DNA of 61,415 bases, filler included, from Basidioascus undulatus (GCA_000826855.1; 11 parts of 11 records of this genome joined end to end with filler, not necessarily neighbours in it); one strand, 5' to 3'; positions 15,085-57,735 are shown, counted from the whole stretch's first letter. Numbers and translations are program-made. The notes: generated by a model not told the origin, from the sequence alone.

Positions 15085-16146
15085 TCAGGCGAAGACTGAC
15101 GCGTCCTCGCCGGTGAAGATCCATGCCTCCCGGAAATAGATAATGCCTGGGGAAGGACGTATCAGGTATTGTTCGCGTTGAGCGATAGCAAGGAGGAATT
15201 CGCACCGAAAATGAGGAAGAGGACGGCCCCGCCGAAAGTGACTGGAAAAAGGCGTCAAGATGTAAGCTGGCCATTTCTGGGTGATTAGGGGATAGAGCGT
15301 GAAGGCACCGTTCTTGATCGAGATGTGACATGCCAACCACCGGCCGCCCACAACAGCGAGGGCGGTACAGCAGCCGTGCCCGACAACGGTTCCCAACGTC
15401 ACGACTCGCCAGCCCTGGCCACTCGGGGCGTTCAGTCAGCCCTGACCTCCCAGTACAGCAAGAAACACCACCATACTTACATGAGCAGCTGCAAGAGCTA
15501 TGGTAGAGATCTGGGACCGGTCGCCCCACTCGCCGAGGAAGGTCAAGACGAACGCCTGGACGAAGACGGGGCTGAGCACCGCAGCCGCGACCTCCCGGAC
15601 GCCCTCCACGCCGCCCTTCTTCCTCCTGCCGCCCTTGAGGCTCGGGCTGCCCAGCCCGCCCGCAACGCCGCCCTCCATGTCGCGCATCTCGACCGGCGTG
15701 CGCGCCCCACGGGCGCCTTGGTCGATCTCCTCCATCGCCTCTTGCATTTCCTCCTCCATCTCCTTGCTCCCGCCCTCCATCCCGCGCGCCTCCTGCAGCA
15801 TCTTGAGCCCGAACGCGAGGAAGAGCAGCGCCGCGGCGTACTGCGTCCACAGCTTCGGGATGAGCGCAGGGAGTAGCTGCCCCATCAGGGAGGACAGCAG
15901 AGACATCGCGGCGAGCGCGGCGAACGCGCCGCCGAAGACGACGAGCTGCGGGTTGCGCATGGCGAGGATAGCGGCTGGAAGTGTACCCGAAATCAGTTCT
16001 TCTCGGTGCCGCCAATCCGCAGCGAAGCAAGTGGACGGACCGATGAGAAACGTCTTGTCGCCGAGCTCGCTGACGATAATCATCGCGAACGACTGCCACA
16101 GCGCCGCGCCATTCATGCCCGCGGTGACTGCGCCATCGGAGGCCAT
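15085..16146 (-). CDS. GDT1: UPF0016 family Ca2+/Mn2+ transporter (Gdt1/TMEM165)
   Basis: Two family motifs, SELGDKTFLI and FLGEWGDRSQISTIALAA, plus GHGCCTALAVVGG. Confidence 0.95.
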
Positions 16147-18149
16147 GCTTGATATGGCGGTAAAAGGGGAGGGAACAAGTGGGGCGGAGGGGCAAGGAAG
16201 AGGGAAGACGGCACGTCGCCCCAGCGCCAGCGGCAACGCGCCGACACGCTCGTGAGATAGTCTTACGTGGCCATACCCTGGCCTGTTCCTTCTTTTCGAG
16301 CGGACCGCCAGATCCATGGGTGGGACAATGTTGTATCGTTATTGACAAAGGAATATCCATAATCTTTACATGTGGTCAGATTAAGAGTCAACTTGGGGAC
16401 GTTCGCAGTTTCCGGCAGTAAACGCTGGCCTGCATTCGATGGCCCCTGGCACACATCTATCTAATGCGTCGAGTCAACCCCTTCTTGCATTCTAGTCAAG
16501 AAGAAAGGGACTGAGGTGTTTTAATTGCACTCCCACTATTTCCGGGCTTTGAGGACTGGTAAGAAACCCTCTATTCGAGGCGGTCGGCAACCTCAATACC
16601 GTCGTTTAAGCACCGCTGCAGCCTCTACATCGAAACTTTCGTGATATTCGGCTATTTGAAGCCTATTGGTGTCCAATTCGGCTCATTGACAATGAATCAA
16701 AGACAGGTTCACGAAGAATAAGCGTCCACGGGCGCTGCAGTGTGTTACGCAGCAAACCAGCGTTATTGATTGGAAGTGGGTAAAAGCTGCAGGAAGGTGC
16801 TGCACCGTTGCGCCCCTGGCGGCAGCAAAACTGCTTGAACCGTGAATCCAACACGGGGCGGGTCGAATTCGAATGGCAACGACCCAGGTTACGACTACCC
16901 CACCCAAGCTTCATTAACCTATTCGCTTCTTTATCTTGTGATGGGAACGTGAAACCATCATGCGTTCCGCTCATGACATGACCACGCCAGAAAGACTTCC
17001 TGCGACAACTCAGTCAATGTGGGTCAGGAGTCGACCTAAGTATTTGCTTCATAACATACGATTGATTCTTGCGGTTCACATTGGTCTCGCCCAATGTGCT
17101 TGCAAGCGCACCGCCCCTTGTTCGTACGTTTGCAGTAGTAGGTGCGCTCCCGGCTGTGCAAATGATTTGTGATATATACAGTTTCTTGAAGGTGGGCAGT
17201 CTTATTTGTGAGCCCATACGCTTCTGTGATCATAGTAAGAAATCTTTTAGACTGTGTCAGCGACGTCGAAGCGGTGTAAGTTCACGTTCACGTACGTTCA
17301 TGCTGGGAGCTCACTACGTAAGACATGACTTCGTCGCTCACCACCCCTTGATGCTCAACCTCCAACCAACCGTCCCTTTCTCTCCTCCCCATTTATCTGT
17401 TTCTCCTCTTCCTTCTACTCACCACAGCTCACGCTCATCACGCTCGAAACCAATCTGCTTTCCTTCGGCAGACGATCCTCAACCCTCTCCTCTCTCCCGC
17501 TTCTCATCATTCACTCCCGCTGCGCTTGGCTCGCTCACTTCGCTAGACTATGTTTCAACCTTCACACAGCGGGACCATTGCTCTGGGATCGAGGTACGAT
17601 CAAGGTGTGTTCACTCCTTTTTCTTTCTGACTCGGAACGGCATTTGACTCGCCTGGGCGCTGGTCGTCCGGCTCGGCAGAATGGAAGTGCGACCAATGTG
17701 CGTTTAGTCCCTCATCATGTCAATGGTTAGGGGCGATCTGGAACGTAGCTGACTGGGATGGATCACCTGTGAATACAGCCACCTCAGCATCTTCTCTACG
17801 CCGCTCGCCTCTCCCCTCGTGTGGGCGACACACTGACTCGTTTCAGTCCAGCCGTCTGCAATGGGTGCGCTCCGAGTACTCTTCCGTCCATTGCCGCGCA
17901 GGCTGAGGTGGCGGCCTCAGGACTCTTTTCACGCTCTTCGCTCCTACTTGCCATTCCCGCCTCCAACCTTGGCTGCTCGTCCGGACGCACAGCATCTAGC
18001 TCTCATCATTTGTGCGTCGTTCACTTCACGTTCGCGCTAGTCTGTGGTTTCTTTCTCACTGCTTTCCTCCCTGCATTCGGACCCCATCCGCCCACTCCGT
18101 CGTCCTTCTCCTCTATCAATTCACTGTAACCCCAGTACACATTCATTCA

Positions 18150-49083: not shown

Positions 49084-49156
49084 GCCTCGCTAGCTCAATC
49101 GGTAGAGCGTGAGACTCTTAATCTCAAGGCTGCGGGTTCGACCCCCGCGTGGGGCT
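49084..49156 (+). tRNA. tRNA-Lys(CTT), intronless
   Basis: Acceptor GCCTCGC/GTGGGGC, D stem GCTC/GAGC, anticodon arm TGAGA-CT-CTT-AA-TCTCA and T arm GCGGG-TTCGACC-CCCGC. Confidence 0.97.
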
Positions 49157-55794: not shown

Positions 55795-56642
55795 CGTTAA
55801 GGATGATTAACACGACCAAATTCAAGAAGGATGAGCAGAGTAAAAGCTGGTCTGATCAGGAGCAGATGAATCTGGGGGGTCGAGGACCCGTAGAAGGTAC
55901 ATGCGCTAAGCGGCGCGAGGGGCCCAGGGCAGCACCGTAGGGGCTCCTCAGCCTCAGCTCCTCCTGACAGGAAGCGGACATGGCCCTGATTATCGCATCC
56001 TTTCAAAACTGTACATTTTTCCTCGGAATAAATGGTACTCAGATATCACACTGAATCTTTTTACAAGGCACGCGGAAACCGCAGGGACACGGGCGGGCGG
56101 GCGGTCACACGAGCAGCAGTTCCGCCTCCGGGTCCCAGTGTCGGATCCGTGCTTGATCATGTCATGGGCTCGCGGGAGTTAAAGGGGCGGAAAACTCGGG
56201 TTCTATTTGGTCGTATATCGGTATACTTTCCATGGGATACTGACAGAGGACGCAAGGTCAGTTGGCAGTCATGCATGCATGTGCAAAGCCCATATGGCTT
56301 TCTTGATGACTGCCATCCCTCCGGAAGCTGCGCATTGAGACATTGATTCGGACCAAAGCCCTCCCAGTCTCCCTATCCAAAAAGAATGGGCTGGATCCCA
56401 TCCCTCTAGCACATCCTGCTGGCGAAGGTACACAACATTCCATGTAGTCTTCACCTTCGACGCTGGATGGGACAGATCCATGGCAGGCCTCCCGTGCGCA
56501 TCTTGGGGGAAGCACCACGGGCCACCGAGGTTTTAGCAGATCACCCATCTCGGACACTGGAGCAAACATTTGGTAAAAGTTGGTAAAAGAGAGCAGTAGG
56601 GTACACCATAGCGCCCAAAGAAGCAAACAAGTCTGTACAAGC

Positions 56643-56647
56643 AAAAA
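56643..56647 (-). terminator. Pol III T5 terminator of the permuted tRNA
   Basis: TTTTT on the minus strand, 5 nt after A37 of the 5' half. Confidence 0.7.
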
Positions 56648-56652
56648 GACAG

Positions 56653-56732
56653 TACGAGTGGCGCGCTCTACCACTGAGCTAAAGGGGCAATTCAAATGCC
56701 CCCTGGCTGGATTGAACAACCGACCTCACCAT
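56653..56732 (-). tRNA. Circularly permuted tRNA-Thr(CGT): 3' half (56732-56697), 8-nt spacer, 5' half (56688-56653)
   Basis: The minus strand reads ATGGTGAGGTCGGTTGTTCAATCCAGCCAGGGGGCA-tttgaatt-GCCCCTTTAGCTCAGTGGTAGAGCGCGCCACTCGTA. Swapping the halves gives a complete 72-nt cloverleaf with every stem paired. Confidence 0.85.
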
Positions 56733-57735
56733 TTCGTTGCCATCCGGTTATTAGACCAGACGAAAAGCAGATGTAGCTTAACTTTCATGAATACGGGACT
56801 CAGCAAAGAAACGTTCCCGGCATCGCCACAAAAAAAACCACAAGAGATTACACTTAAGATTCCAACACAATGAACCAAATCCGCTTCCGCTTATATATCC
56901 CTGGGGTTGAGAGCGGCGCGAATGTCCCAGTGCCAACTAGCCCAGAGCAGGGAAAACGGGAGGGAAACTGCACAGATTTGTCGCTCAAATGCACTTTTGT
57001 ATTCCGCTAACAGTACTGGCACATGATCAAGGAGAGTGAATTTTAGTTAGTGCTGTCTTCCACGAGCAGGGCCGGGCAGGCAGATTCTGTCAACACTTGT
57101 TCCACCTCTCTCCATGTGTCCCTTAAACAAACTTGAGACCCTTGTAACTTTCAATAAACTTGAGTTGAAGGGACCCCCAGTCACAGCGCAGCCGGTGCAG
57201 TCATGCGTTCAATAAAGTGACTTGCCCTTTCTATAAGGCTCAAAGCTCATGACATACATACCTTACTTACTCATATTTGTACATACTTTATACTCATACA
57301 TACCTTGTGAGATGTATCCTCATATATGAGGCAGAGCCTCATAGTATGAGGAAGTATATGCCGTTTCACTGGCAGAACAAGACCAGTAGCTGTTCCAGTG
57401 TGCCACAACATTCTGTTCTATGTTCATAACTTCCCCTTTAATGTCTGAAGCCCACAAAATTGGTGACTCAATATGTGCAGTGTGGCTGAACAGTCAACAG
57501 TCACAATGGTGCTATCAACACGAAACTTGCAAGTCCACTGTCAGCGTCAAGTGGCTTGACAGCTTGACCCCAAAGTGCATCAAGTACTTAACCTCTCAAA
57601 GCGGTACTCTGGGAGGTGTCATATTGGTAGACTGGGCTAGAGGAAGTAAAGGAGGTGTCATGAACGTCTTAACAAACATTCAATCCTCGACAACTGTCAA
57701 ACCTTGCCACCTCATTTTACGCTCTCACCCTTTCC

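Follow-up and report, generated by a model that had tools for sequence, protein, structure and literature searches.

A probable circularly permuted tRNA-Thr(CGU) gene family in the basidiomycete Basidioascus undulatus

Can a tRNA gene whose 3' half precedes its 5' half serve a fungus, and what would the sequences around such a gene contribute? The question is raised by a locus on the minus strand of a DNA stretch of Basidioascus undulatus (GCA_000826855.1), in which 11 parts of 11 records of this genome, not necessarily neighbours in it, are joined end to end with filler; below, the window means this whole stretch of 61,415 nucleotides, filler included. A preliminary description of the locus regarded it as a permuted tRNA gene and proposed that its leader and trailer mimic an intron, and that the leader may supply a substitute A box and be a relic of an ancestral D arm. 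Direct reading of the minus strand confirmed all of its coordinates and letters. Judging by its sequence, the locus probably represents a basidiomycete tRNA-Thr(CGU) gene in circularly permuted form, its junction lying between positions 37 and 38, and the gene itself is probably real; the intron-like folding of its flanks is partly supported, and the substitute A box is not supported.

The order of elements on the minus strand is leader, tRNA 3' half, 8-nt linker, 5' half, CTGTC, and TTTTT (Table 1). Rejoined, the 5' and 3' halves give 72 nt that form a perfect cloverleaf (-26.6 kcal/mol) and are called tRNA-Thr(cgt) by ARAGORN. The conserved tRNA bases T8, A14, G18G19, T33, T54T55C56, and A58 are present. 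The chance of a run of five T beginning at most 12 nt away is 1.2%. The order of the halves, the short intervening sequence, the canonical cloverleaf, the terminal T stretch, and a linker free of terminators are those of type II (37/38) permuted genes. A scan for the layout of 3' half, linker, and 5' half returned this one site in the whole window, and no second copy of the permuted gene was found within the window. ARAGORN, as well as Rfam at the gathering score, missed the gene when applied to the genomic order and found a tRNA-Lys gene alone. In the E-value mode of Rfam, the sole match at the locus was bacterial YrlA (56635-56750, minus strand; 21.4 bits against a gathering score of 69, E 0.072). 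Membership in YrlA was rejected, since the match is far under the gathering score and mirrors the order of T arm, acceptor, and D arm.

Table 1. Positions of the permuted gene, its flanks, its copies, and the reference tRNA gene in the window (for copies, the aligned part of the window is given)
Feature	Position	Strand	Remark
Leader end ...GTCTGGTCTAATAACCGGATGGCAACGAA	last base 56733	-	sequence read
tRNA-Thr 3' half, 36 nt, A38 (56732) to A73 (56697)	56732-56697	-	holds the T arm and the B box
B box	56721-56705	-	inside the 3' half
Intervening linker TTTGAATT, 8 nt, closes the acceptor stem	56696-56689	-	T3 at most
tRNA-Thr 5' half, 36 nt, G1 (56688) to A37 (56653)	56688-56653	-	sequence read
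True A box	56681-56671	-	inside the 5' half
Anticodon CGT	56656-56654	-	inside the 5' half
Trailer CTGTC (+1 to +5), 3' strand of the outer helix in both registers	56652-56648	-	sequence and folding
TTTTT run, probable RNA polymerase III terminator	56647-56643	-	sequence read
ACGA (-5 to -2), anticodon-leader helix with U33-C34-G35-U36	56737-56734	-	P 0.91-1.00
GGCA (-9 to -6), leader strand of the alternative outer helix with UGUC	56741-56738	-	folding
GATGG (-12 to -8), outer-helix strand of the preliminary description	56744-56740	-	pairs with CTGTC via two G-U
Leader hairpin, 8 bp (CGUCUGGU with ACCGGAUG), 6-nt loop	56762-56741	-	folding
TGGTCTAATAACCGG, A-box-like element of the preliminary description	56758-56744	-	not an A box by consensus
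T4 run, far leader, just upstream of the conserved unit	56766-56763	-	sequence read
Copy, X1 record 3 / X2 record 12	56652-56735		6 substitutions and a 4-nt insertion
Copy, X1 record 4 / X2 record 14	56655/56653-56733		bridging contig
Copy, X2 record 13, 88-nt contig	56653-56736		bridging contig
T8 run between the TATA-like stretch and the gene	56837-56830	-	sequence read
Strong TATA-like stretch GATATATAAG	56899-56890	-	~160 nt upstream of the 3' half
Ordinary intron-less tRNA-Lys(CTT)	gene 49084-49156, with trailer to 49170	+	canonical A and B boxes

Other copies of the gene exist. Contigs of two runs, X1 and X2, which come from two studies, one of them possibly the source of the window, were aligned to positions 56450-56950. 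To count as bridging, a contig had to span all three of 3' half, linker, and 5' half, with over 31 letters to either side, and the comparison of copies rests on 17 of the 66 aligned pieces. Bridging contigs of X1 and X2 revealed at least three further permuted copies besides the locus in the window. The word depth of one of them, the 88-nt contig of X2 (record 13), is about 2.6 times that of the single-copy flanks; depth is not equal to copy number, and the value would fit more than one copy.

The differences between the copies bear on a sceptical explanation, according to which the locus and its copies are inert remnants, for example leftovers of tandem tRNA duplications or a small dispersed repeat, and the pairings of the flanks are meaningless. 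The listed differences of the bridging copies are confined to 56683-56703, that is, to the linker and the middle of the acceptor stem. Linkers of the other copies, read from the alignment tables, are 10, 12, and 12 nt long, unrelated in sequence, and without T4, and the positions adjoining the linker (1-3, 70-72, and 73) are invariant across the bridging copies. This abrupt change from invariant acceptor ends to linkers with nothing in common argues against inert remnants, as do the perfect cloverleaf with all invariant bases and the nature of the acceptor-stem substitutions, seven of eight of which maintain or better pairing. In one copy, C4-G69 is replaced by T4-A69 and T6.G67 by T6-A67; in the second, C5-G68 by G5.T68 and T6.G67 by C6-G67; in the third, T6.G67 by C6-G67. 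The eighth substitution yields a C5.A68 mismatch in one copy and speaks for decay, as do a promoter arrangement that is not one known to work in fungi and a high depth over the tRNA parts; owing to the latter, related tRNA sequences able to homogenise the halves must be plentiful. The anticodon region is the same as in the window in the two copies for which all substitutions are listed; in record 3, two substitutions lie where they were hidden by depth.

The 3' ends of the copies are informative in the same respect. Among the matches listed, there were three distinct loose-end trailers unlike that of the window (at 56648, 56649, and 56653; X2 contains the first two as well). Each of them has a run of four to five T at most about 12 nt from A37, the chance of which is 1-4% per trailer, and some of them possibly share ancestry with the trailer in the window. 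T runs after A37 in four different trailers, with T4 in no linker, are not expected of inert remnants. Different linkers combined with pair-preserving changes in the acceptor stem indicate that the gene is probably real. Taken as sequence evidence, conserved halves, free linkers, pair-preserving stems, and kept terminators resemble what would be expected of a working family rather than of fragments in decay. We consider it likely that a functional permuted Thr(CGU) family is real, and quite unlikely that the locus and its copies are inert.

Other contigs carried related sequences. End pieces of two of them (records 2 and 8) match 56712-56761 with three differences and 56637-56677 with two; a close duplicate therefore probably has the leader in common as far as -29 and the trailer as far as +16. 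In the close copy, the loose end at 56761 (X1 and X2) is immediately preceded by an AT-rich stretch and by GGTTCAAA, which resembles half of a B box; the sequence upstream in the window is different. A 263-nt low-depth contig of a third run (X3, record 17) matches 56697-56732, exactly the extent of the 3' half, with four differences. It is preceded, at a loose end, by a different small hairpin and then GGCA, with no tRNA 5' half, and may represent an intron or leader of a related gene. No contig joint marking a colinear Thr(CGU) gene was found among the contigs of X1 and X2, which inform on presence and not on absence. A metagenome scan for the acceptor-linker-acceptor pattern found no relative in the data covered; the one locus that it brought up was an ordinary bacterial tRNA-Arg with a chance upstream match.

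The next question is whether the flanks could present the junction to the splicing machinery. The leader ACGA is complementary to TCGT (T33-T36) of the anticodon loop, as was pointed out in the preliminary description, and folding with the cloverleaf enforced predicts that it pairs with U33-U36 with a probability of 0.91-1.00 at six of six leader lengths from 6 to 40 nt. A37, A-1, and A38 remain at least 96% unpaired, and the cloverleaf is intact. An outer helix could be formed in two nearly equal registers. The pairing of GAUGG (-12 to -8) with CUGUC (+1 to +5) proposed earlier is possible by sequence, with two G-U pairs, and is the minimum-energy choice only with a 12-16-nt leader (probability 0.5-0.78). 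The pairing of GGCA (-9 to -6) with UGUC (+2 to +5) is favoured with a 9-nt and again with a 29-nt leader (probability 0.89-0.99). Once the leader reaches 29 nt, a hairpin within it takes up the GAUGG bases, and GGCA:UGUC replaces the proposed helix. The unconstrained fold of 56761-56643 contained the permuted cloverleaf, the hairpin, the 4-bp helix, and GGCA:UGUC, with an energy of -42.7 kcal/mol (z -2.44; 1 of 200 shuffles was equally good). The loops beside the 4-bp helix are predicted to place C32 opposite A-1 and A38 on one side, and A37 with C+1, or A37 opposite C-7 and A-6, on the other.

In eukaryotic introns, position 32 pairs with intron position -3 (the anticodon-intron pair) and the 3' site has a 3-nt bulge, as known for the yeast and Xenopus enzymes; the predicted helix between 33-36 and -2 to -5 is off the register of this pair. 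The strict bulge-helix-bulge (BHB) motif is defined by a 4-bp helix flanked by two 3-nt bulges, and eukaryotic tRNA introns lack a strict local motif and are cleaved by a ruler mechanism (PMC4090602). In these terms, the predicted fold lends partial support to the idea that the leader and trailer can adopt a structure resembling that of a eukaryote-type tRNA intron: the anticodon-leader helix, the single-stranded cut sites, and the outer helix are all possible.

Whether these pairings exceed chance depends on what is counted. Of 200,000 random flanks, 5.9% allowed the leader end to form a 4-bp helix with the anticodon loop in one or the other register, and 1.0% had, in addition to this helix, an outer helix of 4 bp or more next to it; these geometry criteria were fixed post hoc, after the structure had been seen. 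The other copies provide a second view. Alignments of divergent copies enter the leader by three bases (to 56735; record 3/12 and, by the count of the loose end, a second contig) or by four bases (to 56736; record 13 of X2) and then stop. G-3 and C-4, predicted to pair with C34 and G35, are among the leader bases that recur, and neither the linker nor the remainder of the leader can be aligned. CTGT or CTGTC recurs in two loose-end trailers with different continuation; since CTGT also stands after the tRNA-Lys gene, its recurrence may reflect the terminator context. The tRNA-Lys trailer TCTGTTTTG, with four T only, resembles the CTGTC-TTTTT trailer of the permuted gene.

Several observations weigh against the flanks acting as the ends of an intron in a working gene. 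They contribute -7.0 kcal/mol, an ordinary energy: as much is gained from 13.6% of random genomic flanks and from 21.9% of shuffles (2000 of each). Instead of the 3-nt bulges of BHB, the fold has 1x2 internal loops or a 2-nt bulge, which bears out the earlier remark that the structure is not a strict BHB. The base at -3 is a G, suited by sequence to the C32 anticodon-intron pair as had been noted, but the predicted probability of this canonical C32:G-3 pair is about 0 because G-3 is taken by C34. The copy of record 4/14 aligns to -1 only, so the leader end is not universal. Records 2 and 8 contribute pieces that fall short of the length required for bridging, with differences whose positions are not given; the 88-nt contig of X2 stops at A37, consistent with differing trailers among its copies. 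An ordinary gene, tRNA-Lys, is also trailed by CTGT and a T run, and it has no upstream TATA-like element. Finally, a fungus with A-then-B promoters would have to initiate transcription upstream of the 3' half.

Some of these points lead to an alternative in which the gene is real and processed by the endonuclease and ligase, and the leader-trailer and leader-anticodon pairings are incidental: the enzyme would measure from the mature domain and need only single-stranded sites. The ordinary folding energy of the flanks speaks for this explanation, as does ruler cutting of eukaryotic introns without a strict motif (PMC4090602). The leaders of the divergent copies differ beyond -1 to -4, their trailers differ as well, and the outer helix has two competing registers and hinges on the start site. 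It accounts less well for a combined geometry found in just 1.0% of random flanks and for the recurrence of the last three to four leader bases, the partners of the anticodon, in leaders that have otherwise diverged. We consider incidental pairings rather unlikely, and give an even chance to the fuller explanation: a real multi-copy permuted tRNA-Thr(CGU) with the junction at 37/38, its leader and trailer acting as the ends of a eukaryote-type intron.

The maturation route that we infer for this explanation, including transcription, cleavage, circularisation, and any need for the pairings, would be as follows. RNA polymerase III would start somewhere in the leader, read the 3' half, the linker, and the 5' half, and stop at T5. 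The transcript could fold into a cloverleaf with the acceptor stem closed by the linker, while the leader ACGA would pair with U33-U36 and GGCA (or GAUGG) with (C)UGUC of the trailer. The bonds A37|C+1 and A-1|A38 would then sit in small single-stranded loops flanking the 4-bp helix. The tRNA-splicing endonuclease, measuring from the intact mature domain, would cut both bonds, and tRNA ligase would join A37 to A38, which would give a circle. RNase P and RNase Z would excise the linker, and CCA would be added. Such intron-like folding follows a principle already known from algal permuted tRNAs, whose precursor flanks form BHB-type motifs and for which a circular intermediate has been demonstrated (PMC3978253).

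The promoter poses a separate question. The B box in the 3' half is intact, and the true A box lies downstream of it. The preliminary description proposed that TGGTCTAATAACCGG in the leader acts as a substitute A box and restores the A-then-B order for TFIIIC. The spacing speaks for this: TGGTCTAATAACCGG lies 40 nt upstream of B-box position 52 (56718), compared to 43 nt in a colinear tRNA (hand count). The stretch did not match either consensus. It deviates from TRGCNNARN{1,3}GG by T in place of C11 and by 5 nt between R15 and G18, where A boxes have 1-3 nt, and from the minimal motif T.G...A...G (TNGNNNANNNG; T1, G3, A7, G11) used by Seifert-Davila and colleagues (PMC11724288). On this strand, the single match to the minimal motif between 56640 and 56840 is the true A box at 56681. 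A pattern loosened post hoc to admit TGGTCTAATAACCGG occurs 41 times in the window, which corresponds to about 1% per 31-nt zone, so that its rarity counts somewhat in favour of the element, as does its retention in one close copy with three differences in 50 nt.

The same letters form the core of the leader hairpin, with an energy of -10.5 kcal/mol (z -4.36). None of 200 dinucleotide shuffles was as stable, and 2.4% of 3000 genomic 26-mers were; in statistical terms, nothing else in the leader stands out as much as this hairpin. TGGTCTAATAACCGG is outside the aligned part of the divergent paralogs, where the alignment stops at -1 to -4. The start expected in the preliminary description (56765-56770) falls on a T4 run. 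Transcription starting upstream of this run is doubtful because the ordinary tRNA-Lys gene is followed by only T4, and a substitute A box would imply a start at or upstream of it. A precedent is provided by the pseudo-A box of yeast tRNA-His, also an A-box-like stretch upstream of the TFIIIC-bound region, which matches T1, G3, A7, and G11 of the minimal motif, whereas TGGTCTAATAACCGG does not; once the real A box was mutated, the pseudo-A box was unable to replace it, and neither a TFIIIC footprint nor a transcript was observed (PMC11724288). Such motifs occur within 30 nt of 12 of 272 yeast tRNA genes, and the authors doubt their functional relevance (PMC11724288). Judging by its letters, TGGTCTAATAACCGG would be the core of the leader hairpin and not a replacement A box, a role that we consider very improbable. 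The related suggestion of an ancestral D-arm relic was not supported either, since similarity of the leader to the 5' half was no better than in shuffles (95.9% of 2000 scored as high).

No usable TATA-like element was seen before the permuted gene. Weakly AT-rich stretches are present at 56803-56780 (minus strand), and the strong TATA-like stretch GATATATAAG farther upstream is cut off by a T8 run. By its position, GATATATAAG presumably cannot serve RNA polymerase III for the permuted gene; it might mark a polymerase II start reading through the locus.

A search for traces of the origin of the permutation gave little. A T-arm-like stretch downstream (56474-56462, minus strand) and a 5'-half-like stretch upstream (56931-56910, minus strand) imply "intron" lengths of 164 and 173 nt, as a tandem-duplication origin predicts. 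In an unselected 400-nt search these stretches were not significant (28% and 31% of shuffles were as good); in hand-picked windows, chosen afterwards, the values were 1.7% for the 3'-half match and 14.8% for the 5'-half match. The two intervening stretches are dissimilar to each other (z -0.41). The trailer matched the 3' half no better than shuffles did, and no notable repeats were found around the locus.

The wider surroundings are fungal in character. F-box-like fungal open reading frames (ORFs) flank the locus on both sides, and two look-ups in a protein atlas likewise indicated fungi. Two assembly-like runs containing the stretch comprise about 35 million letters each. A GDT1-family ORF (15439-16338, minus strand) matched 965 proteins at E<=1e-20, and the top two named matches among the best 120 of 965 were from Exidia glandulosa and Cristinia sonorae, both Agaricomycetes, with about 48-52% identity; the remaining species named among the matches listed belong to the agaricomycetes as well. 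No homologs were found for a 796-aa PPR-like ORF. Paired 44-nt N runs occur every ~3.69 kb at 24541-57835 of the window (20 runs, 880 N) and resemble masking, not biology.

Permuted tRNA genes have been described in Cyanidioschyzon merolae, prasinophyte green algae, the Bigelowiella nucleomorph, Auxenochlorella, and Thermofilum pendens (PMC3978253, PMC12636532, PMC13578239), and no report of a fungal one was found among the titles and abstracts listed in literature searches on permuted tRNA genes. The closest layouts are the type II genes of prasinophytes and the Bigelowiella natans nucleomorph (Maruyama et al. 2010, cited in PMC3978253), which share the 3'-before-5' order and the 37/38 junction. 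Their intervening sequences are 5-64 nt long, compared to 8 nt here; a junction relaxed relative to strict BHB (hBH there, predicted here) and a downstream T run are common to both, and both layouts are consistent with an ordinary eukaryotic endonuclease (PMC3978253). Thr(CGU) is not among the green-algal cases in Table 1 of that review (PMC3978253). Unlike the algal genes, the present one belongs to a basidiomycete host and has several copies and no AT-rich or TATA-like element seen at a usable distance.

The type II Thr(CGT) gene of C. merolae (Soma et al. 2007; PMC3978253, Table 1) agrees in isoacceptor, in junction, and in the pathway proposed, which passes through a circular intermediate. 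With an intervening sequence of 31 nt (PMC3978253), compared to 8 nt here, it differs from the locus, which is therefore not the C. merolae gene. Upstream TATA-like elements are described for C. merolae, and homologs of the TFIIIC box-binding subunits are described as not identified there. In the fungus, where tRNA-Lys carries both A and B boxes and lacks a TATA, the promoter thus presents a sharper problem than in C. merolae.

Intron-anticodon pairing, single-stranded splice sites beside helices, and the option of a purine at -3 with a pyrimidine at 32 are shared with canonical eukaryotic 37/38 introns (PMC4090602). Compared to these, the "intron" here is open, its two ends being the transcript's own ends. 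The 4-bp central helix, unpaired cut sites, and an outer helix are also found in the archaeal strict hBHBh' motif. Its two 3-nt bulges are absent here, and the predicted helix between 33-36 and -2 to -5 is one base off the archaeal BHB register as well (PMC4090602).

Permuted tRNA genes have been viewed as a curiosity of a handful of unicellular algae and a single archaeon (PMC3978253, PMC13578239), and it has been argued that eukaryotes with 37/38 introns could in principle have permuted genes, although most do not (PMC3978253). The interest of the present locus is thus in its setting: it is probably a functional multi-copy permuted tRNA gene in a basidiomycete, for which no published precedent was found. 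The chances are slightly better than even that this fungus decodes ACG via a small family of permuted tRNA-Thr(CGU) genes, the first outside algae and archaea; that its ordinary tRNA genes use A-then-B promoters; that the splicing endonuclease and ligase routinely circularise the permuted precursor; and that RNA polymerase III starts upstream of the B box without an A box ahead. If true, a working fungal family would mean that the ordinary opisthokont splicing machinery can mature permuted tRNAs. It would move the phenomenon into organisms open to culture and manipulation, and would pose the question of how a TFIIIC-dependent start is made with the B box first.

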